Shown one piece after another: positions 2,897-21,876 of a stretch of DNA of 22,215 nt (positions are counted from its first letter, which is position 1; the number at the start of each line of letters is the position of its first letter). Origin of the DNA: a virus; UHGV virus genome UHGV-0087471. One strand, written 5' to 3'. The position numbers were made by a program, and so were the translations under genes. The notes below the pieces were generated by a model, which saw only the letters and a program-made list of their open reading frames with translations, did no database searches and had not been told where the DNA came from.

Positions 2897-2909
2897 TTTT
2901 TTGTAAAAG

Positions 2910-3142
2910 CCCTCTACCCCATCTACCTGAATGAAATAAACGCATATTATTCAACATGATAAGTGGGTAGAGGGATAGGTAGAAGGCTAATAAAACCCCT
3001 CTACCTCCTCTACCATGATTAAGGTCGTTTGTGAGGGGCGGGTAGAGGATGGGTAGAGGGCCACGAAAAGCCCTCTACCCATCTGAAAGCCGCGCCATTA
3101 CTGACCTGAAAGATGATTAGGTAGAAGAGGTAGAGGAGGTGC
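2910..3142. repeat. Iteron array, putative replication origin of the satellite
   Basis: At least 8 copies of GGGTAGAGG / CCTCTACC(C) in both orientations within about 230 bp of non-coding DNA directly downstream of the primase gene (e.g. 2910-2928, 2965-2986, 2996-3014, 3035-3060, 3071-3083, 3117-3142). Confidence 0.55.
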
Positions 3143-4726: not shown

Positions 4727-5012
4727 GATGCGTCCTTTGTTGTAGTCAGAGACAGCAATAATAGGCCATGGTTTACTTCTTTTGTAAATTATTTGTTCGT
4801 GTTCTTTCGTGGTTGTTCGGTCTGACTGACAGGTGTTTACATACTGATTTTTATGTATATGTTGTAGCGTGGCACTCAGACGTGAGCCGCCACAATGCCG
4901 CCTGACCCCCTGCGCGATGCCGGGTTGATCTGCGAGATGCCGAGAGTGTCGGGCGGCGCTCCCCCCGTGTTGGTTTCACGTCCTGAATCTTAACCAATAC
5001 GAGAAAACCTTC

Positions 5013-6182
5013 ATGAAGAAATTAATCGAACTCCGCCAGCAAAAAAACGCCCTGAAAAACCAGATGCGATCCCTGCTGGAAAAAGCCGACAGTGAAAACC
5101 GTAGTCTGAACGCTGAAGAAGGCAAACAGTTTGATGAACTGCGTGCAAAAGCTGATGCCCTCGACACAGAAATTTCCCGCCTCGAGTCTGTGGCTGATGA
5201 AGAACGCAGCAAGCCAGGAACGGGCATCCAGAAATTATCATCTGATGAATTGCGTAACTACATCGTAACCGGAGATGTGCGATCACTGTCCACCAGCACT
5301 GACAGCGGCAGGGATGGCGGATATACCGTAATTCCTGAGCTTGATCGCGAAGTCATGCGCCAGCTACAGGATGACAGTGTTATGCGCGTGATCGCGACCG
5401 TGAAGACCGCAAAATCAAATGAGTTTCAGAAACTGGTTTCCACTGGCGGCGCAACTGTAGGACGAGGCACAGAAGGCAGCGCACGCAGTGAAACCAACAC
5501 CCCGAAAATTGAACGCGTAACCATCAAGTTGAATCCGATCTACGCCTACCCGAAAACCACGCAGGAAATCCTGGATTTTTCAGAGGTGGATATTCTGGGC
5601 TGGTTATCCTCCGAAATTGCCGACACGTTCGCCAGCACCGAAGAGGATGATTTTGTTAATGGCGACGGTAACGGCAAGCCGAAAGGCTTCATGGCTTACA
5701 CCCGTGCGGCGACCAGTGACAAAACCCGCGCTTTTGGCACCATTGAAAAAATAGTAGCGGCAAGTGGAACCGCCATTACAGCGGACGAACTGATCGACAT
5801 TCTCTACAAGCTGAAAGCGAAATACCGCAAAAATGCCGTATGGGTGATGAACTCGGGCACGGCAGGGACACTACAGAAGCTGAAAAATGAGAACGGCGAT
5901 TATATCTGGCGCGACAGCCTTAAAGAAGGTGCGCCGGATATGTTGCTTGGTCGTCCTGTTTACTGCCTGGAGTCCATGCCGGACATCGGCGCAGGAAAAG
6001 CACCGCTAGCGGTTGGCGATTTCAGTCGTGGTTATTTCATCGTTGATCATGTAACAGGGATTCGCACCCGACCGGACAACATTACTGAACCCGGATTCTA
6101 CAAGGTCCACACGGATAAATATCTGGGCGGTGGTGTGGTGGATTCAAACGCCATCAAAATTCTGGAAATGAAAGCTGGCTAG
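5013..6182 (+). CDS. Major capsid protein, HK97-like fold (389 aa)
   Basis: N-terminal coiled-coil delta/scaffold-like domain followed by a capsid-type region (GNGKPKG, LLGRPV..ES motifs); size typical of HK97-family capsid proteins. Confidence 0.85.
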   Translation: MKKLIELRQQKNALKNQMRSLLEKADSENRSLNAEEGKQFDELRAKADALDTEISRLESVADEERSKPGTGIQKLSSDELRNYIVTGDVRSLSTSTDSGRDGGYTVIPELDREVMRQLQDDSVMRVIATVKTAKSNEFQKLVSTGGATVGRGTEGSARSETNTPKIERVTIKLNPIYAYPKTTQEILDFSEVDILGWLSSEIADTFASTEEDDFVNGDGNGKPKGFMAYTRAATSDKTRAFGTIEKIVAASGTAITADELIDILYKLKAKYRKNAVWVMNSGTAGTLQKLKNENGDYIWRDSLKEGAPDMLLGRPVYCLESMPDIGAGKAPLAVGDFSRGYFIVDHVTGIRTRPDNITEPGFYKVHTDKYLGGGVVDSNAIKILEMKAG

Positions 6183-8013: not shown

Positions 8014-8308
8014 AGCCAAAATTACACCTGATGAAGTCAGGGCACATCTTCGACTTGATGATGATTTATCCGGTGAAGGCGAACTTCTGAAAATGTATAC
8101 CGATGCGGCGCTGGAAGCCTGCCAGAAGCATATCGGGAAACGTTTTGAAGACGGGCTGGAATTTACCCCGGCAATGCGTGTTGGTTGCCTGATGTACATC
8201 GCTTTCCTGTACGAGAACCGGGAAGCGGTTTCACCAGTGGAGCACTCGGAACTGCCTATGGCTATTTCTGCGCTCTGGTCAGTTTATCGTGACGTAGGGG
8301 TGTACTGA
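8006..8308 (+). CDS. Head-tail connector / DNA-packaging protein, gp6-like (100 aa)
   Basis: N-terminal ITPDEVRAHLRLDDD...E..LLK.Y.DAA.EA pattern typical of gp6-like connectors; AAGGGAG RBS; start ATG 8006 overlaps portal stop. Confidence 0.6.
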   Translation: MSEAKITPDEVRAHLRLDDDLSGEGELLKMYTDAALEACQKHIGKRFEDGLEFTPAMRVGCLMYIAFLYENREAVSPVEHSELPMAISALWSVYRDVGVY

Positions 8309-8748
8309 TGCCGTGGCAACCATTAAGGCGATGCACTGAGCCTGGCTGTAATAAGCGCGTGAAGTCCGGCAAGTGTGAAGAGCACAGGCGGGCTGCATGG
8401 CGTGCAGAGGATGCCAGACGGGGACACCGCCGCGCGCGCGGGTATTCCCGACAGTGGGACAAATACCGCGCCCTGTACCTGAGCAAAAACCCGTTATGCG
8501 TGAGTTGTCTGGCTAAGGGGATTTATACGCCAGCTCTTGTGGTGGATCACATCATTCCCATCAATGGCGGCGGTGATGTTCTCTTCTGGCCTGAGTGGAA
8601 CCACCAGGCATTGTGCCAGACGTGCCACAACCGTAAGACGACACGGGAAGATCCCGCCACGAAAGCGAACCGTAAGGCGGGCATGTATCGCGATCAGGAA
8701 GAACGGGCGGCACACCGTAACGACTGGATGTATGGCGATGATGACTGA
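8308..8748 (+). CDS. HNH endonuclease (terminase-associated, 146 aa)
   Basis: Cys-rich N-terminus (CTEPGCN...C..H) and HNH core (VDHIIPINGGG...NHQALCQTCHNRKT); positioned directly upstream of terS as in HNH-dependent cos packaging systems. Confidence 0.85.
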   Translation: MPWQPLRRCTEPGCNKRVKSGKCEEHRRAAWRAEDARRGHRRARGYSRQWDKYRALYLSKNPLCVSCLAKGIYTPALVVDHIIPINGGGDVLFWPEWNHQALCQTCHNRKTTREDPATKANRKAGMYRDQEERAAHRNDWMYGDDD

Positions 8749-9036
8749 ACAGGAGCAAAACAGGCTGATACGTGGGTTGATAAGGCAGCGTGACACATGG
8801 AAGACACAGGAGACAGGGCACAAAGCCAACAGGACAGGGCGCACAAAACGCACCACAGCGAAGCGATTAACCGACCGTGACCGCGAGGTCATGGAATGTT
8901 TTCGCAATCGCTGGTGAGGCCGTCAGAGGGGGTGGGGGTGGTTTTCAGGACGAAACCGTCCCTGCCGGACACCGACCGCCTCCCCAAATTTTTATGCACG
9001 GGAATTTTTTGAAAAATAATCTGACGAAAAATAAGC

Positions 9037-9393
9037 ATGGCAAGACCACCGAAAGCCCCCGCCTACCTGGATGATATCGCCGTGAAGCAGTGGCGGGAAA
9101 AATCGCGGCAGCTTGCGGAACGGGGAGACCTGACCCCCGCCGACTGGAGCAATCTGGAACTGTATTGCGTCAACTACTCCATTTACCGGAAAGCCGTTGC
9201 AGACCTTGCGGCGCGCGGGTTCAGCATTGTTAACAGTCAGGGCGGCGAGAGCAGAAACCCCGCATTAAGCGCAAAATCCGACGCTGAAAGAGTGATGATA
9301 AAAATGGCCTCCTTGCTCGGTTTTGACCCGATAAGCCGCCGTAAAAATCCACCGGAAACAGAAGAAGAGGACGAGCTTGACCGCCTGGAATAA
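9037..9393 (+). CDS. terS: Terminase small subunit (P27-family-like, 118 aa)
   Basis: Sequence pattern (W...L..G.L...D...L..YC..Y..Y..A...L...G......G....NP) and position immediately upstream of and overlapping the large terminase gene. Confidence 0.75.
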   Translation: MARPPKAPAYLDDIAVKQWREKSRQLAERGDLTPADWSNLELYCVNYSIYRKAVADLAARGFSIVNSQGGESRNPALSAKSDAERVMIKMASLLGFDPISRRKNPPETEEEDELDRLE

Positions 9394-11038
9394 GTACGCA
9401 GAAGACGTAAAAACGGGCAAAATTCCGGCCTGTAAACGGCTGAAACAGGCCGTTAAACGGTACTTTTCGGACCTTGAAAGCCCCCTTTACACGTTCGATC
9501 GTGAGGTTGTGGAGCGGTTTATTGCCTTTTCCAGGGTGTGCGCGCACGTAAAAGGGCCGATGCGTGGCAGACCCATTGAGCTGGAGCCGTGGCAGCAGTT
9601 CGCCTTTGCGTGCATCCTCGGCTTTAAGGTTAAGGCCACCGGACGGCGCAAATACACGAGCGCCTTTATCGAAGTGCCGCGCAAAAATGCGAAATCCACG
9701 ACCGCCGCGATTCTGGCTAACTGGTTTCTGATTATGGAGAACGGTCAGCAGGATATCTACACCGCAGCGGTGAGCCGTGACCAGGCGCGGATCGTCTTTG
9801 ATGATGCGCGTCAGATGTGCCTTTTATCCCGACCGTTACGCAGGCGGGTGAATATTCAGGCGCATAAGGTGATACACCCGAAAACCAACAGCCTGTTAAA
9901 GCCACTGGCAGCAAAAGCGGCAACCATTGAGGGGACAAACCCGAGTCTTGCCATTGTGGATGAATATCACCTGCACCCAGACAACGGGGTTTATTCCGCA
10001 CTTGATATGGGGATGGGCGCACGTCCCGAAGGGCTGTTATTTGCCATTACCACATCGGGCAGTAACGTCGTTTCAGCCTGTAAGCAGCACTATGATTATT
10101 GCTGCCAGATCCTGGACGGCGAAGAGGTCAACGATTCAATTTTTGTACTGATTTACGAACTGGACGACGAAAACGAGGTTGATGATCCGGCGATGTGGAT
10201 AAAGGCTAACCCTAACATCGATGTTTCCGTCGATCGTGAAAAACTGGCCTCAACCATCCAGAAAGCGCGGGGTATTCCGTCGCAATGGGTGGAAATGCTC
10301 ACCAAGCGATTCAATATCTGGTGTCAGGGGGCTACGCCGTGGATGGGTAACGGTGCATGGGCGGAGTGTGCCGGAACGTTCGCGGAGGCGGATTTATACG
10401 GGCAGGAGTGCTACGCGGGGCTGGACTTATCATCAACCAGCGATATTTCCAGCGTGTGCTATGCCTTCCCGGTCGGTAAAAAGATTATGCTGGTTTCCCG
10501 TCACTATCTGCCGGAATTTCAGCTACAGAATCCCGCCAATAAAAACCGCGCCATCTATCGCCAGTGGGTAAAGGCGGGCTGGATACGCACAACACCGGGT
10601 GACTGCATTGATTATGACCGTATCCGTGATGACATCATGGCGGATGCAGAGAATTTCAATATCAGGCTGGTGGGCTTCGATACATGGAACGCCACGCACC
10701 TGAGGACGCAGTTACAGGGCGCAGGATTTGAGGTGGAGCCGTTCCCGCAAACCTACCTCAGATTCAGTCCGGCGGCGAAATCGTTCGAAGTTTTTGTTAA
10801 CCGGAAGGTGATTGTGCATCGTGGTGATCCGGTGCTGGCCTGGTCAATGAGTAATGTTGTGATGCAGAGTGACGCGAACGCCAATATCAAGCCGAACAAG
10901 AAAAAATCATCCAACAAGATAGACCCGAGCGTTGCGGCGCTGATGGCGTTTGGCACATTCCAGGCAGAGCACGAGGACTTTGCATTCGATATGAGCGACA
11001 GCCACAAAGAGCGGCTTGCGGCGTTTGATGGGGTATGA
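9377..11038 (+). CDS. terL: Terminase large subunit (553 aa)
   Basis: Large ORF with terminase-type ATPase N-terminal half and nuclease C-terminal half; appears to start with TTG at 9377 (GAGGA 6 nt upstream), overlapping terS. Confidence 0.9.
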   Translation: MTAWNKYAEDVKTGKIPACKRLKQAVKRYFSDLESPLYTFDREVVERFIAFSRVCAHVKGPMRGRPIELEPWQQFAFACILGFKVKATGRRKYTSAFIEVPRKNAKSTTAAILANWFLIMENGQQDIYTAAVSRDQARIVFDDARQMCLLSRPLRRRVNIQAHKVIHPKTNSLLKPLAAKAATIEGTNPSLAIVDEYHLHPDNGVYSALDMGMGARPEGLLFAITTSGSNVVSACKQHYDYCCQILDGEEVNDSIFVLIYELDDENEVDDPAMWIKANPNIDVSVDREKLASTIQKARGIPSQWVEMLTKRFNIWCQGATPWMGNGAWAECAGTFAEADLYGQECYAGLDLSSTSDISSVCYAFPVGKKIMLVSRHYLPEFQLQNPANKNRAIYRQWVKAGWIRTTPGDCIDYDRIRDDIMADAENFNIRLVGFDTWNATHLRTQLQGAGFEVEPFPQTYLRFSPAAKSFEVFVNRKVIVHRGDPVLAWSMSNVVMQSDANANIKPNKKKSSNKIDPSVAALMAFGTFQAEHEDFAFDMSDSHKERLAAFDGV

Positions 11039-11328: not shown

Positions 11329-12254
11329 CTTGCAGATATTCCCGATAACGTAAAATTGCGTTGGCTGGCAGAGTGCAAATTTGCACGATGGCCTAACCCA
11401 TTGATTGTTTCGGAAACCTCAATTTGAGGAGGCCGGACAGCGTGACGGAGGGTGACAACCAGTGACACGCCGTGACAAAAAGACGGTTTAACCATCCATT
11501 AAAAATCGACGTGATTTTGTGCTTTCCGTATGAGGTGGCCAGCGTCATTTTTTAGTGAGAAATTCTGGTCAGGGGCGTTGGCTGAATGGTTATTTTATCG
11601 TGCCCATGCACAGGGAGGGGGCGGGTAAAATCTCTGGAGGTGATGCCTGTCAGGACCGCCGCCTGACCCTTCCTCACATCGCCGCAGGTTCGAAAACTTT
11701 TTTTGTGTCAGGTGCGCACGGAATTGATAGATAAAACCTATATTAAAAAATCACGGAAGCCGTGCCATTGCTGGAGCAGTCAAAAATTCCACATCTCACG
11801 GCAGGCAAAAAAAGCGAATTTTGGGCCAGTTGAGGATAAAAAAGGGCTCACTAGTTTTGCACATCCTGGTATCGGGGTCGTCAGCCTCCCGCCAGTAACT
11901 AGGTAACTAATCACGCTGGTGGGCATGATGCCGATGCCGGGATCTCGGTATCGGTTTATCTGTGATCATCCACCAGCTTGATGACAGATAACAGGGAGTC
12001 ATAACGGTTAAAGCGTGTTGATCTTTGTTCGTGGTTGTTCGATATTGTTCGTAAAGCGGTGTAGTTAATGGTGTAGTTAATTTCGCTGTTTTTGACGAGC
12101 TTATCATTTGCAACGCAATGAAAAACAAAGACTAATTAACAAAATGCTATAAATGATAGTTATCTATCATGTGGAGTAGATTGGTCAGGCAAATAAGCTC
12201 TTGTCAGCGGCAGGGCGTTCTGCCGATAACCGTAACCGAAGATGATAACTGACA

Positions 12255-15225: not shown

Positions 15226-15313
15226 TGGCGGTGAGGGGGGGATTCGAACCCCCGATACGTTGCCGTATACACACTTTCCAGGCGTGCTCCTTCAGCCACT
15301 CGGACACCTCACC
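15226..15313 (-). tRNA. serW: tRNA-Ser (anticodon GGA)
   Basis: 88-nt sequence GGTGAGGTGTCCGAGTGGCTGAAGGAGCACGCCTGGAAAGTGTG...GGTTCGAATCCCCCCCTCACCGCCA on minus strand; long variable arm, encoded CCA; clpA-serW gap (344 bp) matches my recollection of E. coli K-12. Confidence 0.95.
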
Positions 15314-15356
15314 AAATTGTTTTTTTGCCTGACCTCATGGGGGGCAACGGGGCGCT

Positions 15357-15385
15357 ACTATAGGGAGTTGGAATAAAACGGTCAA
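15357..15385 (-). promoter_or_regulatory. Putative sigma70 promoter of serW
   Basis: On minus strand TTGACC (-35, 15385..15380), 17-nt spacer, TATAGT (-10, 15362..15357), about 40 nt upstream of the mature tRNA 5' end. Confidence 0.4.
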
Positions 15386-15678
15386 GAAGAATTTTTATGA
15401 TAATTATTGTTTGCTCATACTGTAAACAAGTTGTGCAGTATATCTACATCTGATGCGCCGCGCGATAAATAAGCCGCAATCCGTGAGATAAATGGACACA
15501 GTGCGGCTTTTCAGATACGGAAAAGGAATTACAGATTATCAGTCGTAAGCAACCCACGCTTACTGGCAAGGATGGTTTACAATGCTGAAAGCGCCTCCCG
15601 GCAATACCGCCAATCATCACTCAAACAGAAAAAATTATTGCTCATGGTTCACTCCGGTAATGAATCGTTTTACAGGCG

Positions 15679-16272
15679 TCATTCGGTCATGGAAAGATTG
15701 CTGATTTCGGTAATCCCGGCAATTTCCTCGCTGACGGATTTCAGTTCGATTTCCAGCTTGGTGCGTTCGTTGACCAGCGCAGCTACGGTCTTACGGCGGT
15801 CTGCCAGTGACGGAAGGTTGTCATTGCCCCACGCCACGCTTTTATCCTTTTTGAGCGCTTCGGTCAGGCGGGTGGCGACCACATCCGGGAAGAAAAAGCA
15901 TAACTTACGCATAACCGTCATCCCGACATCAGCCAGGGGGACATTCCCGCTCAGTCCCACCAGACGGAACAGACCAGAAATATCACCATTCTCATTTTCC
16001 AGATTACCCCAGCGTTCGGCGTTCCCTTCACTGCCGGAACCGTTGCAAAGAGCAAGCTTGAATGACTGATATTCTTCCTGCCCGAATCGCTCAATATATT
16101 CAGGAATAAAGGAACAGTAATCATTAAGCGATAATGGCATATCCTGTAATGTGGTTATTTCACTGTTAATCTCTCCAATTCGGCGGGAGAGCTTTTCTTT
16201 CTGCTCATTCAGGGAGGCAAGATTATTTTTAACGGCGTTCAGTGCTTCGATAAGGGAAATAACAGGTTTCAT
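15679..16272 (-). CDS. Hypothetical coiled-coil protein (197 aa), scaffold-like
   Basis: Start ATG 16272 with GGAG RBS, 1 nt after stop of upstream gene; N- and C-terminal heptad-like segments (LIEALNAVKNNLASLNEQKEKLSRRIGEINSEITTLQ; KTVAALVNERTKLEIELKSVSEEIAGI). Function inferred only from composition. Confidence 0.55.
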   Translation of the reverse strand: MKPVISLIEALNAVKNNLASLNEQKEKLSRRIGEINSEITTLQDMPLSLNDYCSFIPEYIERFGQEEYQSFKLALCNGSGSEGNAERWGNLENENGDISGLFRLVGLSGNVPLADVGMTVMRKLCFFFPDVVATRLTEALKKDKSVAWGNDNLPSLADRRKTVAALVNERTKLEIELKSVSEEIAGITEISNLSMTE

Positions 16273-16273
16273 T

Positions 16274-16888
16274 TTAATAACTCCAGATGAAAGGCGTGGT
16301 GAGGGCGAGCGCTTCAGAATAGGAGACATTGCAGGCTGCACTTACGTCCTTTATTAAAAGGTGCTGTGCTGCCCTCTGACTGTCTGCTATGCCGTCAAAC
16401 TCTGAAAAATGAACGTGTGATTCATTGTGATAAAAGCAAACCGGGTAACAGCTTTCCATAAATTCTACCTGCGCCAGTCCCTTTACTGCTGGAGGCTGTG
16501 AGCCGAGAAAACCGATATGCTGAAGATACCAGGCACCGATTCCTGCCGGGTTGTTCGCTTCGCCGGGTCTATAAAATGCCGCAGACACTTTCCTGTAACG
16601 CCCTGCGCGTACCAGTCCCAGCAGGGTTTCATCAGGCTTAACCAGCGCGAAAAGCCTGCCGTTTTTACTTATCAGCCCAGTTGTTTCACCATAAGATGGG
16701 CTGTTGCTGGCCGGATGTCCAATACACAGCGGCGCACCATAACCCGCACGATGATAGCCGTTATAGGCTGCCGCCATGTTGTCGATATCCTCGTCGGAAA
16801 AGGCAATTTCCTGCCCAGCCATCGTGATATGCGTTCCCGCCCGGAATATCTCGATAGTTTTCCAGTTGCCAATATCGATATCTTTCAT
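16274..16888 (-). CDS. Hypothetical protein (204 aa); weak resemblance to phage prohead proteases (HK97 / Mu gpI-like)
   Basis: Start codon overlaps stop of upstream Mor-like gene. By-eye motif similarity to the satellite's own HK97 protease: His-containing CIGHP, then GLISKNGRLFALVKPDETLLGLV...KVSAAFYR paralleling GTLVLTEDNTGLRFELTPPDTQLG...TGMSFGFR. Unverified. Confidence 0.5.
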   Translation of the reverse strand: MKDIDIGNWKTIEIFRAGTHITMAGQEIAFSDEDIDNMAAAYNGYHRAGYGAPLCIGHPASNSPSYGETTGLISKNGRLFALVKPDETLLGLVRAGRYRKVSAAFYRPGEANNPAGIGAWYLQHIGFLGSQPPAVKGLAQVEFMESCYPVCFYHNESHVHFSEFDGIADSQRAAQHLLIKDVSAACNVSYSEALALTTPFIWSY

Positions 16889-16889
16889 T

Positions 16890-17423
16890 TTAAATTACCC
16901 CATATTTCGCATCGCGCTGTATTTTATTTTTCTTGCGTTCGGCGGCTATAATCTGATAAATACACTGAATGGAACGCTTGTATTTTTTTGATAGTTCAAA
17001 AATAGAGATACCCTGATAAAAATCAGCCAGTATTTTTGAGTTCCTGTCGAAAGTGTTTTTTGATGCGCCCATAGGGATATATATATTCCCCCTGAAAAAT
17101 GTATTCCTGAGACATTCAGTGATGGCAGGAGAAAGTTTTTCGGCTTGCGAACAGAGGTAAGGTATGGTTCCTAATGTCTGCTCAATAGATTCAGTCAGCT
17201 CCTGTAGGAAGCGAACTGCCTTAGGTGCTCTTTCTCGGTGTTCAGCCATATACCCCTGGCAGCCACCAAGGTTATCAGAGATACCCAACACAATATGATT
17301 AGCCGCACTGCAGGACTGTTGCCGTGAATACCCTTTGTTGATCAGAAACACTTCTATAGCATCGCCCATTGCCCCCAAAGTATCGGATGAAGCATACAAT
17401 CCTTCTCTTGTAATCATAATCAC
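16890..17423 (-). CDS. Mor/C-family transcriptional activator-like protein (177 aa)
   Basis: C-terminal region GNIYIPMG...FDRNSKILADFYQGISIFELSKKYKRSIQCIYQIIAAERKK resembles the Mu Mor motif (G.VYIP.G ... DF.G.N..EL...Y......Y.I) with a C-terminal HTH; identification from remembered family signature, not a search. Confidence 0.5.
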   Translation of the reverse strand: MIMITREGLYASSDTLGAMGDAIEVFLINKGYSRQQSCSAANHIVLGISDNLGGCQGYMAEHRERAPKAVRFLQELTESIEQTLGTIPYLCSQAEKLSPAITECLRNTFFRGNIYIPMGASKNTFDRNSKILADFYQGISIFELSKKYKRSIQCIYQIIAAERKKNKIQRDAKYGVI

Positions 17424-17657
17424 ACCTCGTCAACGATAAATATGCGCACATAAAGCCTTTATAAAGCTTTATGAGGTGCATTACTGGTGTCATTCCATGA
17501 TGCACACCACCAACAACCAAAAACGCCTTACAGAGCATTTCAATGTGTGTTATTAATGTGGATTAAGAATATGGTTTTGGGGCGAGAATGTTTTTTAATG
17601 TACTTTAGATATGACGAAGCCCCTCAAAGGAGGGGCGAGGCGGAAAACTATTTATAA

Positions 17658-17936
17658 CTATTCCTTACTCTCCTGATCAAGACGATTACCTATCAGGTTA
17701 ATCATTGCCATTGCATCAGATAGCAGGATACTGTTAACAAGTGCTAAGGGCGTCTGTGTTGATTTATCATCAACGGCAACAGAAAGTTCATCATTCAGGC
17801 GACGAACGGCCTCAAGACGGCTAAAGGCGGCTTCCCATATTTCTGTACTCGGGGCATCAGCATTAACAAACAAAACATCGTAAGACGTTCCCTGAGACTC
17901 ATGAGGACAGGCTATGAAATTAGCAGTAGCTTTCAT
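17658..17936 (-). CDS. Hypothetical acidic protein (92 aa)
   Basis: ORF whose start overlaps the stop of the upstream gene (ATGA at 17933..17936); no recognisable motif. Confidence 0.45.
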   Translation of the reverse strand: MKATANFIACPHESQGTSYDVLFVNADAPSTEIWEAAFSRLEAVRRLNDELSVAVDDKSTQTPLALVNSILLSDAMAMINLIGNRLDQESKE

Positions 17937-18412
17937 TTTGCAGTCCTCCGGTTAATTATAAATTTATTATAAATTTCATAACTTGCGGCATTCAGTCCTG
18001 GACTGTATTTATCTGCCAGTGAACAGGCAATGAATTCTTCAATCGATTTAGTCAGTATATCAAGCTCAGTTGTTCCGGAATAACGCAAGGCCACTCGAAA
18101 TAATTCTCGGCAGTATGTTTTTTTATGGTCAATATTTTGTAACTGCTGTTGCGGTATATCACGACGTTCAAATATATTAACAAATGCATTAAGCGGGAAG
18201 CTATGATTTGCCTGCGGATATTGCTCATAGGAAAACACCACAGTATTACCGTTGCATTCTTTAACAATTGCATTCATACCGCTGTTAATTTCAATATACC
18301 ACTCTCCTATACATGGAGGATTGATAGCTTCGCTCTGTGCCTTGATTAAAGGTAAGCGGATAGTATCCACTTGGTTTGTTGCAACTGAATCGTTAGACTT
18401 GTCGTTAGCCAT
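17933..18412 (-). CDS. Hypothetical protein (159 aa)
   Basis: Start ATG 18412 with AGGA RBS about 9 nt upstream (longest ORF extends to 18430); first gene of the minus-strand cluster; no recognisable motif. Confidence 0.45.
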   Translation of the reverse strand: MANDKSNDSVATNQVDTIRLPLIKAQSEAINPPCIGEWYIEINSGMNAIVKECNGNTVVFSYEQYPQANHSFPLNAFVNIFERRDIPQQQLQNIDHKKTYCRELFRVALRYSGTTELDILTKSIEEFIACSLADKYSPGLNAASYEIYNKFIINRRTAK

Positions 18413-18600
18413 GACTGTTATCCTACACATAACGGTTTTTGGTTAGGCCATAGCAAGTGCTCGCAACATTTGTTATGGCCGTTTCTTTGGCCCTTTCCCT
18501 GTGATAAGGTATAGACCTAACAAGTAAACACTAAGCCATAGGTCTATACATGTCAACTATCTTGAGAGATAAAAGCCAAAAAGGGGCAGGGAAAGCCCCC

Positions 18601-18741
18601 ATGTTTAACGTTAGAATATCGCCAGATTTGAAAGAACAGTTTGAAATACAAGCAAAAAAAGAAGGTGTTAGCTTGGGAAACTGGCTCAAGGAACTTGGCA
18701 GGGCGGAACTAAAACGTAAGGGGATCGAGCCGAAAGGGTGA
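18601..18741 (+). CDS. Small ribbon-helix-helix (Arc/MetJ/CopG-like) regulator (46 aa)
   Basis: MFNVRISPDLKEQFEIQAKKEGVSLGNWLKELGRAEL fits a beta-strand/helix/Gly/helix RHH pattern; divergent from the minus-strand cluster; ATG 18601 preferred (GGGA upstream) over ORF start 18550. Confidence 0.4.
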   Translation: MFNVRISPDLKEQFEIQAKKEGVSLGNWLKELGRAELKRKGIEPKG

Positions 18742-18767
18742 TGTTTTAGTCTCCCTGTGTTTGATTA

Positions 18768-19601
18768 AAAGCGAAATCGCTTTCACATTTAAAGTTCAAG
18801 ATAGCCAATGCCATCACCAAAGCGGACAGCGCTGTCCGCTTTTCATCAGTAAAAACCACATATTTACGCCAAAACGCTCAACGTTGAGCGCTACGTACCC
18901 CGGCAAAAGCGCAAGCGTCTGCGCTTTTGGTAACAAGCAATCAGCATTTAAATGCGGACAACGTTGACCGTTTTGAGGAATCAATGTCGGCTGAGCAAAA
19001 ACGACAACGTTGTCGTTTTTAAAACGGCAAGCGCTTACCGTTTCAGATTATCGAGGCGGTAAGAGTTTACCGTTTGGTGTCAATTATGTTCAATAAGCGA
19101 AAACGTTTTCGCATTTTCTCACCTAACGCGGCAAACCTTCTTTGTCCTAGATGGAAAAACGACAGCGCTGTCGTTTCTAATCCGGGGTTCCAAACCGCTC
19201 AGCGCTGAGCGGTTCTGTGGCTTTCTTACAATCCAAATCCGCCAACGTTGGCAGATTTGCAAATATCACATATGATTGATGGTCCCGAATCACAAATGTC
19301 CCAGCGCGGGGATATTTCAAGTAGTTCAATCATTTCATGCGCTGGCAGTCATCTCCAAAACTGCGAACGCCTGCCCTTTCAGTACAGTTTGGTAATATAT
19401 ATTGGTAAGCTTTACTTGTAGAAATATAAAACTCCAAAAGCGCCAGCGCTGGCGCTTTGTAAGGCCAGCAATATCATTCCCAGCGCTGGAATACTAAAAG
19501 GCGGATTCCTGCATCTTAATTTGAGATGGAATCTCATGGCAATCCAGTGTTAACGTAGGGTTTTAGCCAGTACTCACGACTTGAATATGCCAGCGCTGGC
19601 A
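18768..19601. repeat. Array of about 17 short perfect or near-perfect palindromes (14-24 bp) centred on AGCGCT or AACGTT
   Basis: Perfect palindromes at 18819..18842, 18875..18890, 18997..19020, 19097..19112, 19157..19176, 19193..19214, 19437..19458, 19588..19601; imperfect ones between them; one more of the same family at 21106..21129 beyond the IS903 copy. Confidence 0.6.
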
Positions 19602-19823
19602 CATTTGAAGTCTGGTAACATCAATAATCTAATGACACCTGATGTAATTTTGAACCCTGAACTGGAATCAACCCCAAATTTAATGGCAACAGCTATCAGC
19701 CAGATTACTGATGAACGTGACCTGCTGAACCAATTACTTGACCAAGCACAGATGGCCGATGCATTCGAGCAATTTTCCCGAACGGTTCGGACTTCTAAAC
19801 TGGCTTTTGTGAAGGAAAACAAG

Positions 19824-20880
19824 GGCTTTGTTGAATAAATCAGATTTCGGGTAAGTCTCCCCCGTAGCGGGTTGTGTTTTCAGGCAATACGCACGCTTTC
19901 AGGCATACCTGCTTTCGTCATTTTGTTCAGCGCTCGTACCAGGGCCATAGCCTCTGCAACCTGACCATCGTAGTCACGCAGTGTCAGTGAACCTCCGAAC
20001 AGCTGTTTTACCCGGTACATCGCCGTTTCCGCTATCGAGCGACGGTTATAATCTGTTGTCCATTTCCACCGCGCATTACTCCCGGTCAGCCGCTGATTCG
20101 CAACAGCACGGTTACGGTCTGCATATTCACCGGGCCAGTAACCCGCGCCTTTTCGGGGCGGGATAAGCGCGCTGATTTTCTTACGCCGCAGTTCATCGTG
20201 ACAGAGCCGGGTGTCGTAAGCGCCGTCTGCCGATGCTGCCCTGATTTTTCTGTGAGTCTGCCGGATAAGACCCGGGAAGGCTTCTGAGTCCGTCACATTG
20301 TTCAGCGACAGGTCTGCACAGATGATTTCATGTGTTTTGCTGTCAACTGCCAGATGCAACTTTCGCCATATACGACGGCGTTCTTTGCCGTGTTTTTTGA
20401 CTTTCCATTCGCCTTCACCAAAGACCTTCAGCCCGGTGGAATCAATCACCAGATGCGCGATTTCACCTCGGGTGAACGTTTTGAAACTGACATTAACCGA
20501 CTTTGCGCGCTTGCTGACACTGGTGTAATCCGGGCAGCGCAACGGAACATTCATCAGTGTAAAAATGGAATCAATAAAACCCTGTGCAGCCCGCAGGGTC
20601 AACCTGAACACGCGTTTAATGACCAGAACGGTGGTGATGGCGAGATCAGAATAGCGCTGAGGTCTTCCCCGTGATGAAGGCGTTGCCGACTCATACCAGG
20701 CCTGAATAGCTTCATCATCCAGCCAGAAAGTTATGGAGCCACGGTTGATGAGGGCTTTATTGTAGGTGGGCCAGTTGGTGATTTTGAACTTTTGCTTTGC
20801 CACGGAACGGTCTGCGTTGTCGGGAAGATGCGTGATCTGATCCTTCAACTCAGCAAAAGTTCGATTTATTCAACAAAGCC
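19824..20880 (-). mobile_element. IS903 (IS5 family), complete 1057-bp copy
   Basis: 18-bp terminal inverted repeats GGCTTTGTTGAATAAATC at 19824..19841 and 20863..20880; ends match remembered IS903 sequence; 9-bp direct target duplication GAAAACAAG at 19815..19823 and 20881..20889. Confidence 0.92.
19880..20803 (-). CDS. IS903 transposase (DDE, IS5 family; 307 aa if started at GTG 20803)
   Basis: Translation matches IS903 transposase as I recall it (VAKQKFKITNW...). The longest ORF extends 15 codons further to 20848; the GTG start is chosen to match the commonly annotated 307-aa product. Confidence 0.85.
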   Translation of the reverse strand: MAKQKFKITNWPTYNKALINRGSITFWLDDEAIQAWYESATPSSRGRPQRYSDLAITTVLVIKRVFRLTLRAAQGFIDSIFTLMNVPLRCPDYTSVSKRAKSVNVSFKTFTRGEIAHLVIDSTGLKVFGEGEWKVKKHGKERRRIWRKLHLAVDSKTHEIICADLSLNNVTDSEAFPGLIRQTHRKIRAASADGAYDTRLCHDELRRKKISALIPPRKGAGYWPGEYADRNRAVANQRLTGSNARWKWTTDYNRRSIAETAMYRVKQLFGGSLTLRDYDGQVAEAMALVRALNKMTKAGMPESVRIA

Positions 20881-21876
20881 GAAAACAAGCTGTATCGCAA
20901 TCTAAAGGGTAAGAAGACACCGAACGGTTCGGAGTTTTCGGGTACATGGGATGAATTTTGTAATGTTCTTGGAATATCCGTTGATAAGGCAGATTTGGAT
21001 ATTGCCAACCTAAGAACCTTCGGCGAAAAAGCCCTCGAATCCATGCCTCGTATGGGGAGCGGCTATCGTGAACTTCGTCAGTTCCGCCGACTACAAGACT
21101 ATCAGAAAAGCGCCAACGTTGGCGCTTTTGGGAAAAGCCAAACAACCCTGCTATTCCGCTTCATGAAACACTTGAGGCATCACAAAACCAAATAGCATTA
21201 CACCAGTAACAGATCATTTCTCAGTTCGGAGATGGCCTGCTGTTTGATCTGTTGTGTAACGAAGAAAAAATTCGCAGTCATTTATCACGCAGCGCTGAAG
21301 AAATGCTGGAAGCTGGACAAGCGCTGGTTGTATCGCGTAATTGTTTGCTGCATGAAGAGTGGCTAAATTTTCTTTCCCCTTTAGATTTAGAGTGCTGTGT
21401 TGCTCAACGCATAGCACAAGCAGCCGTATAATTTTCAAATGTGTCGATGTCGACGTATTTGATCCATACTGTTGGCACCAAATTTAAATCATAGATGCGG
21501 GGCTGCGCGATATTGAGATTAAATCTGTCACAAAAATATTGGCCTGCGGCACGCGGATACTGGGAGCAAAGGAAGTTCGGGTGTGATAACCCAGACTGCC
21601 ATCACGTAAAGTACCTGACTAACTCATGCGGAATCATCCTTTTTGTTATGAACCCTGTTTCAGCAAACTCGATTCTAAGTTGCCAGGAAGGATGATTTTA
21701 ATGTCCCACTTATCTTTCATATAGCGGAAAAGAATTTCAGTTCTGTTCACCAGATCCCACGTTATCCCACTCCAATTCGTTATTTATCTCACGGATCACC
21801 ATTCATTTATCTCACGTCCCTTCATACATCGAGACAAGTTACGGACTTATACTTCTAAAGTACTCCATACATATCA

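Follow-up and report, generated by a model that had tools for sequence, protein, structure and literature searches.

Where is the DNA of this element cut for packaging, and what marks the cut? The window, i.e. the whole stretch of 22,215 nt of UHGV-0087471 analysed here, carries an HNH endonuclease gene followed by terS and terL, and the original prediction placed a packaging cos site between the HNH gene and terS on the basis of G/C runs, an imperfect hairpin and an AT-rich stretch. Comparison with relatives supported a cos at this place, with the G/C runs as parts of it; the original prediction gave no cut position, and a base-level prediction with a 3' overhang is now possible. We propose, with a probability of roughly 0.85, that a capsid-forming PICI (cf-PICI) integrated between cspD/yljB and clpS has its cos site at positions 8928-9019, and that this site would be used for packaging in the manner described below.

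The window is E. coli chromosomal DNA that carries a cf-PICI, the packaging genes of which are all intact and arranged as is usual for such elements. The region 8300-9500 matched the chromosomes of E. coli SaT040 and further isolates from humans at 100% identity, and copies at least 80% identical were found in 515 of 5,426 complete E. coli genomes, in every case on the chromosome. The RefSeq annotation of the identical SaT040 locus, together with Pfam, placed the island between cspD/yljB and clpS, and its termini were imperfect 73-nt direct (att) repeats lying 14,256 bp apart. As in other cf-PICIs, an integrase and a replication module preceded the genes for capsid, protease, portal, connectors, HNH, terS and terL, tail and lysis genes were absent, and the size was within approximately 10-18 kb. 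HNH-dependent cos packaging has been reported for cf-PICIs, and the packaged DNA of one of them, KpCIDSM30104, has been reported to form concatemers via cohesive ends (bioRxiv 10.1101/2022.09.08.507074, 10.1101/2025.02.11.637232). The genes and ends of the island were as follows.

Left of the window: attL
Just left of the window: integrase
1148-2896: primase
5013-6182: major capsid protein
Between the capsid and HNH genes, in this order: prohead protease, portal, head-tail connector
8308-8748, plus strand: HNH endonuclease (Pfam HNH PF01844, E = 3.2e-9; phrog_144, E = 5e-45)
8732-8917, plus strand: small conserved gene, 61 aa (RefSeq CDS WP_072256913.1; phrog_3173 over its full length, E = 4.8e-29)
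9020-9036, plus strand: terS leader and ribosome-binding region, variable (entropy 0.90-0.92) and of differing length among relatives
9037-9393, plus strand: terS, small terminase of the P27/Terminase_4 family (Pfam PF05119, E = 1.3e-23)
9377-11038, plus strand: terL, large terminase with ATPase and nuclease domains (Pfam TerL_ATPase, TerL_nuclease)
12016-12088: attR

The HNH protein showed 37% identity to SfV orf53 and 36% to HK97 gp74; its gene is that of the accessory nuclease of an HK97/SfV-type terminase, and no other large gene separates it from the right genome end. TerL was 31% identical to the SfV TerL and 27% identical to HK97 gp2 (E = 2e-48). TerS was 36% identical to the SfV TerS, and no similarity to HK97 gp1 was detectable. 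The site under discussion thus lies between HNH and terS, beside an HK97-type TerL, as in the HNH-dependent cos systems of the HK97/SfV type.

The space available for such a site was smaller than had been described. What was taken for a 290-bp gap (8749-9036) was occupied over its first 170 bp, more than half of its length, by the small gene, which in the RefSeq annotation overlaps the HNH stop codon. The phrog_3173 frame was open in most of approximately 125 distinct relatives, across several divergent N-terminal types; the N-terminal half of the protein was strongly divergent, and the C-terminus was near-invariant (...KR(L/M)(T/S)xR(D/E)RE(V/L)MECFRNR). Because this coding sequence is real, the non-coding stretch shrinks to 8918-9036, that is, to 119 bp, and this stretch very probably holds the packaging cos of the satellite, as judged from sequence comparison. 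As to the small protein itself, it is basic, its gene lies directly upstream of cos, and it is absent from Pasteurella cf-PICIs; it is a candidate for a role in packaging.

Within and beside the non-coding stretch, the following parts were distinguished; none of those belonging to cos is assigned to a strand.

8928-8941: G-run GGGGGTGGGGGTGG, the upstream conserved cos element, toward the last-packaged (right) end
8942-8972: spacer of 31 nt, in which TTTTCAGGAC (8942-8951) is conserved and the next 20 nt or so vary in sequence and not in length
8946-8964: 19-mer of the imperfect hairpin, with the stem GGACG/CGTCC at 8948-8952 and 8957-8961 and the loop AAAC
8973-8982: predicted cohesive end of 10 nt, CGACCGCCTC, deduced from the ends of relatives
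8976-8985: C-run CCGCCTCCCC
8983-9019: A/T-rich conserved block CCCAAATTTTTATGCACGGGAATTTTTTGAAAAATAA, the predicted start of the packaged genome (left end)

Both of the G/C runs were where the original prediction had put them; the G-run was conserved, and the C-run overlapped the predicted cohesive end. The sequence GGGGNGGGGG occurred once in the 22-kb window, at the G-run, against an expectation of 0.13, and at least one copy was present in 11 of 100 shuffles. The AT-rich stretch was likewise confirmed, the GC content dropping from 0.60-0.65 to 0.28-0.30 across 8980-9039, and it proved to be the most conserved non-coding block.

Conservation was assessed in an alignment of 129 distinct relatives from IMG/VR and clearly exceeded the chance level. 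Two non-coding blocks, 8929-8958 and 8969-9018, were conserved above the neighbouring coding sequence, the pattern 8929-8951 within the first block having itself served to fetch about half of the relatives. Column entropy was 0.16-0.30 at 8979-9018, the lowest of the non-coding stretch and below most of the HNH and terS coding sequence, and the variable segments were confined to 8919-8928, 8959-8968 and 9019-9036. In 123 of 125 distinct relatives, the CAAATTTTT block followed the G-run at a distance of 43 nt, although the spacer occurred in 66 versions, indicating that the length of the spacer is constrained and its sequence is not. The block 8983-9019 was near-identical in the cf-PICIs of Pasteurella, although their TerS shares only 62% identity with that of the window (z = 11.8 in a local alignment, reached in none of 1,000 shuffles). 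Across the compared elements, the block after the cut diverged stepwise with TerS, whose identity to that of the window fell from identical through 89%, 82% and 62% to 36%, as expected of a specificity element.

The position of the cut was deduced from the ends of relatives. A metagenomic cf-PICI, contig IMGVR_UViG_3300022664_000095 (L323; 15,518 bp, the whole contig), was written in packaged order, with terS at nt 61, followed by terL, int, primase, capsid, protease and portal, and with HNH and the small ORF last. It started with CTCAAATTTTTACGCACGG and ended with ...GCAAGGCAC, and contiguous relatives read GCAAGGCAC-CACCCGCCCC-CTCAAATTTTT across the same point. Exactly 10 nt were therefore absent between its two ends in comparison with the contiguous relatives, and the ends were unique and non-permuted. 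According to the PhageTerm paper, 3' overhangs lost in library preparation leave a gap in sequencing data, filled-in 5' overhangs would duplicate the 10-mer at both contig ends, and Nextera/transposase libraries lose terminal sequence. L323 showed a 10-nt gap and not a duplication, the footprint expected of 3' overhangs, and we infer the polarity of the overhang in the window from this gap in the assembly of a relative.

L323 was 82% identical to the window in TerS, 82% in TerL and 75% in HNH, and its cos region aligned with that of the window gap-free, so that the positions could be transferred: its right end was the equivalent of 8972, and the predicted cut in the window gives a right end at 8972, the overhang CGACCGCCTC at 8973-8982 and a left end at 8983. 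The relatives used for the comparison were 75-88% identical in their packaging proteins, and none of them represents particle DNA of the window element. The predicted overhang differed at 3 of 10 positions from the CACCCGCCCC of the mapped relative. The terS start codon lies 54 nt from the predicted left end, compared with 49-50 nt in HK97/SfV and 60 nt in L323.

Other relatives also had ends at this site. The linear record LR881103 (vB_KppS-Ant; 16,548 bp), obtained from DNase-treated lysate DNA of K. pneumoniae DSM 30104 with Nextera XT and SPAdes, ended at ...TTTTCAGGAC and started 22 nt before terS. It was without 69 nt that near-identical contiguous contigs carry, corresponding to window 8952-9022 and including the 10-mer. 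The gene content of LR881103.1 (terS, terL, integrase, primase, capsid, protease, portal, HNH), together with DSM 30104 as the host, identifies it as KpCIDSM30104 in packaged form. L142, a draft contig of an isolate, broke at the equivalent of 8973. Relatives thus showed ends at this site, namely at the 10-nt gap of L323, the 69-nt gap of Ant and the break of L142. In one metagenome scan, all 13 contigs with the exact cos variant of the window read through the site. A 16,257-bp cf-PICI contig, L297 (IMGVR_UViG_3300011242_000019), ended at the equivalent of 8994, which counts against the predicted cut.

Several details of these records may be noted separately. The true end of L297, ...CCCTCAAATTTTTA, is displaced to the right by 12 nt relative to the nick predicted for the top strand, and its G-run is shorter (GGGCGGGGGAGG). 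LR881103.1 is titled "Escherichia phage vB_KppS-Ant", the paper on it describes a filamentous ssDNA prophage, and its annotation of a "tail length tape measure protein" looks wrong for that position; MF417951 is named as the closest relative of Ant in PMC8006926.

Subsequently, the predicted cut was compared with cos sites that have been mapped in phages. When SfI virion DNA was analysed by run-off sequencing and compared with the prophage, a gap of 10 nt, 5'-TGCCCGCCCC-3', became apparent, and the SfV cos was reported to differ from that of SfI by one base (PMC3636060). We rejected the start of the SfV record as the cut, the mapped 10-mer being at nt 8-17 of the record. In SfI, SfV, SfII, SfIV and ST64B (PMC3636060, PMC3851460), cos is flanked by HNH and a P27-type terS, as is the site predicted in the window. 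A C-rich 10-mer with a G-run 31 nt upstream of it and a T-run after it was common to SfV, SfI, ST64B and the window, as was, for the SfI/SfV group, an A/T-rich leader of approximately 50 nt before the terS start codon. The ST64B cos region, which is near-identical to that of SfI, aligned with the intergenic stretch of the window with z = 5.9 (none of 1,000 dinucleotide shuffles), whereas SfV and HK97 taken singly gave no significant pairwise alignment of the cos with the window stretch (z = 0.7 and 0.4, respectively). A cf-PICI cos profile searched with nhmmer ranked the SfV cos at the top of its genome with E = 0.48 only, and the HK97 cos was not detected by this profile. The group also differs from the window in several respects. 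Its TerS, TerL and HNH are 36%, 31% and 37% identical to those of the window, the SfI 10-mer TGCCCGCCCC differs from CGACCGCCTC at 4 of 10 positions, and the block after the cut is unlike that of the window (ATACCCGCGAAAAATGAAATTT versus ATGCACGGGAATTTTTTGAAAAATAA). Moreover, its members are complete tailed phages, in contrast to the window element, which is a satellite without tail genes and with an extra small gene between HNH and cos.

HK97 resembles the window in its TerL type and HNH partner and in the order HNH, about 300 bp, cos, about 50 nt, terS. At the HK97 cos, TerS and TerL work jointly with the HNH protein gp74, which stimulates cleavage (PMC9410871, PMC5557969). The HK97 record ends in a 10-nt 3' overhang, CGCCGCCAAA, located 32 nt after a G-run, with the same 3' polarity as proposed here. 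HK97 differs in that its TerS is unrelated in sequence and that it packages approximately 39.7 kb into T=7 heads, compared with approximately 15 kb into T=4 heads for cf-PICIs. Because neither the pairwise alignment nor the profile gave significant similarity, it is architecture and spacing that link the site to HK97. In SfV, SfI, ST64B and every enterobacterial cf-PICI, the G-run stood 31 nt from the 10-mer, and the corresponding distance in HK97 and Pasteurella Pmp8 was 32 nt; in Pasteurella Pmp7 and Pmp8 the G-run was at about the same offset. When the 10-mers were lined up, the G-runs of all compared elements shared columns.

The cf-PICIs EcCIEDL933 and KpCIDSM30104 belong to the same family as the window element and have the same gene order, packaging module, cos blocks and spacing. 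The window island represents another subfamily, its TerS being 81-84% identical to those of the EDL933-host node and the KpCIDSM30104 record, and it carries the 10-mer CGACCGCCTC compared with CGCCCGCCCC or CACCCGCCCC in EcCIEDL933/KpCIDSM30104. We found no base-level cos map for any cf-PICI in the searchable literature, in which only cohesive ends are reported.

A cos at this place might also be cut a few bases further to the right, with an overhang at about 8977-8988 (GCCTCCCCAAA) as given by a GACCGCC..CCAAA alignment to the HK97 right end (GACCGCCGCCAAA), or might be cut to leave a 5' overhang. The end of the HK97 record, ...ATGACCGCCGCCAAA, does resemble GACCGCCTCCCCAAA at 8974-8988, the midpoint of the 69-nt gap of Ant is near 8987, and L297 has its end at the equivalent of 8994. 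However, the HK97 alignment behind this placement is the non-significant one (z = 0.4), and when the comparison was anchored on the G-run spacing, the HK97 10-mer shared columns with those of SfI and L323. Furthermore, the ends of L323 bracket 8973-8982 exactly and L142 breaks at 8973, and a filled-in 5' overhang would duplicate the 10-mer rather than remove it. We regard this alternative as improbable. An initial placement of the cut at 8988/8989, made from an alignment by eye to HK97 and from the Ant midpoint, was dropped in favour of 8972/8982 in view of the SfI 10-mer and the L323 ends.

The cos reading with a cut at 8972/8982 was also weighed against headful (pac) packaging, or a decayed copy in which the motif has no present function. 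The window itself gives no sign that this copy is active, and the Ant assembly alone cannot separate pac from cos. Against this, the packaging genes are all intact, the cos blocks agree with those of relatives that have been recovered in packaged form, and HNH, a P27-type TerS and an HK97-type TerL make up a cos-type set. In addition, KpCIDSM30104 is reported to form concatemers through cohesive ends, and L323 has unique, non-permuted ends. The chance that either version of this explanation holds appears to be slim, smaller than that of a displaced cut.

The non-coding stretch was further examined for RNA structure and expression signals. The imperfect hairpin of the original prediction was indeed present and, folded as DNA, the 19-mer gave -4.8 kcal/mol (z = -3.8). 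Its 5' arm was invariant as part of the conserved TTTTCAGGAC, whereas the 3' arm varied and compensating changes were absent. All five stem pairs were possible in 27 of the 129 distinct relatives and in 3 of 33 whose TerS was at least 98% identical. This uncompensated variation of the 3' arm, found even among relatives with the same TerS, led us to reject the hairpin as a functional part; it is probably irrelevant, because it is not conserved even where TerS is the same.

The 119-nt stretch (8918-9036) folded no better than shuffled sequence (z = -1.4 and -1.0). Terminator-like patterns numbered 4, compared with 2.0 +/- 1.4 in shuffles, which is no excess; weak matches lay at 8920-8935 and, inside the small ORF, at 8875-8894. 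An intrinsic terminator was not accepted, given patterns at the shuffle level, a fold no more stable than that of shuffled sequence and the uncompensated 3' arm. A pattern search found no plus-strand promoter, and a search of 8600-9200 on both strands gave no Rfam match with E up to 1, so that neither a promoter nor a structured RNA family was supported. No IHF-type site WATCAANNNNTTR with up to one mismatch was found in 8918-9060. The least probable explanation, namely that the conserved blocks are signals for terS/terL expression (a terminator or attenuator with a promoter or leader) and not a packaging site, can appeal to G-rich and C-rich arms with a T-run that loosely resemble a terminator and to the weak matches at 8920-8935 and 8875-8894, but these matches are at the level of shuffles, there is no plus-strand promoter, the fold (z = -1.4) and Rfam are negative, the variable part is the segment of 18 nt adjoining the start codon, which is the place of translation signals, and the linear contigs ending at this site are left unexplained.

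As a separate observation, the plus-strand pattern at 8875-8894, contained in the small ORF at its conserved 3' end, consists of a terminator-like hairpin of 8 pairs with a GCGA loop, followed by AATGTTTTCG. DNA conservation is high there (entropy of approximately 0.35), which could reflect the protein motif or a cis-acting signal.

Directly seen in the comparison were the end positions of relatives, the conservation and the fixed spacing; on the cos reading, and by extension from HK97 and the lambda scheme, packaging would proceed as follows. After excision and replication of the island, its TerS and TerL would act together with its own HNH nuclease, and TerS would recognise the A/T-rich block 8983-9019, which is the candidate recognition site. 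TerL and HNH would then introduce two nicks 10 nt apart, at 8982/8983 on the top strand and 8972/8973 on the bottom strand, leaving 10-nt 3' cohesive ends of the sequence CGACCGCCTC. From 8983, the DNA would be packaged in the rightward direction, first terS and terL, then the att junction, int, primase and the capsid genes, and packaging would stop at the next cos, where the small ORF, the G-run and the spacer would form the right end, giving a unit of approximately 14.3 kb. The G-run, 31 nt upstream, would be a second required element, perhaps as a cosQ-like termination signal or as a dock for the nuclease.

In phage lambda, the nick site (cosN) has cosQ upstream of it, on the last-packaged end, and the TerS-binding cosB between the nick and terS, on the first-packaged end; the overhangs are 5' and of 12 nt, and an HNH protein is not needed. 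By analogy only, the G-run may be called cosQ-like and the A/T-rich block cosB-like. P4 and cos-type SaPIs such as SaPIbov5 are also satellites that have a cos and are packaged into small capsids. However, they carry the cos of the helper and use its terminase, whereas the predicted cos of the window adjoins the HNH, terS and terL genes of the island itself and co-varies with the TerS that the island encodes.

Taken as a cos, the site belongs to the known HK97/SfV kind, lies at the place where the field expects it, and is not surprising in kind. What is added here is a predicted cut at base level, a fixed-spacing architecture across HK97, SfV and the cf-PICIs of two bacterial families, the small gene, and the dismissal of the hairpin. 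cf-PICIs spread from one species to another with borrowed tails, their small capsids being self-encoded and filled exclusively with cf-PICI DNA. The predicted cut would define the packaged genome, from 8983 through terS, terL, att and int to HNH, with the right end at 8972/8982. It would also provide a testable cassette of approximately 90 bp for mobilisation assays and engineered transducing particles, allow packaged and integrated forms to be separated in virome data, and point to the block that probably carries the packaging specificity of satellite versus helper.

A wider idea can be put forward tentatively, although we think it somewhat more apt to fail than to hold. The G-run, a spacer fixed at 31-32 nt but free in sequence, the C-rich 10-mer and the T-run may form a cos "chassis" shared by the HNH-dependent terminases of HK97, SfV/ST64B and cf-PICIs of at least two bacterial families, in which the nucleases would measure the cut from the G-run and the block after the cut, which co-varies with TerS, alone would set which genome, satellite or helper, is packaged. 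If true, this would explain how the packaging of cf-PICIs stays exclusive although the machinery is helper-like, and a minimal cassette of approximately 90 bp would serve for satellite-packaged cosmids.

Some further features were observed outside the cos region of the window. The Pasteurella multocida "phage" records Pmp8 and Pmp7 (15.3 and 10.7 kb) are cf-PICI-like and show the same cos architecture in AT-rich DNA (Pmp8, L201 1340-1480; Pmp7, L202 690-850), and their block AAATTTTTACGCAAGGCAATTTTTTAGAAAATAA is almost identical to its E. coli counterpart. In the window, three copies of the 15-mer AAAAGCCCTCTACCC, one of them with 2 mismatches, lie at 2905-3080 directly after the primase gene, spaced 87 and 74 nt apart, and resemble the iterons of replication origins. 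TGTTCG-rich 26-mers occur at both ends of the island, inside the 73-nt att repeats, and once more at 4794-4819, upstream of the capsid gene, where the integrase or a regulator might bind to this internal copy. Finally, a second mobile region lies at approximately 15226-21000 beside a tRNA-Ser gene; among its genes are those for a Mor-family transcription activator, a HicB antitoxin and an IS5 transposase, besides several hypothetical ones.
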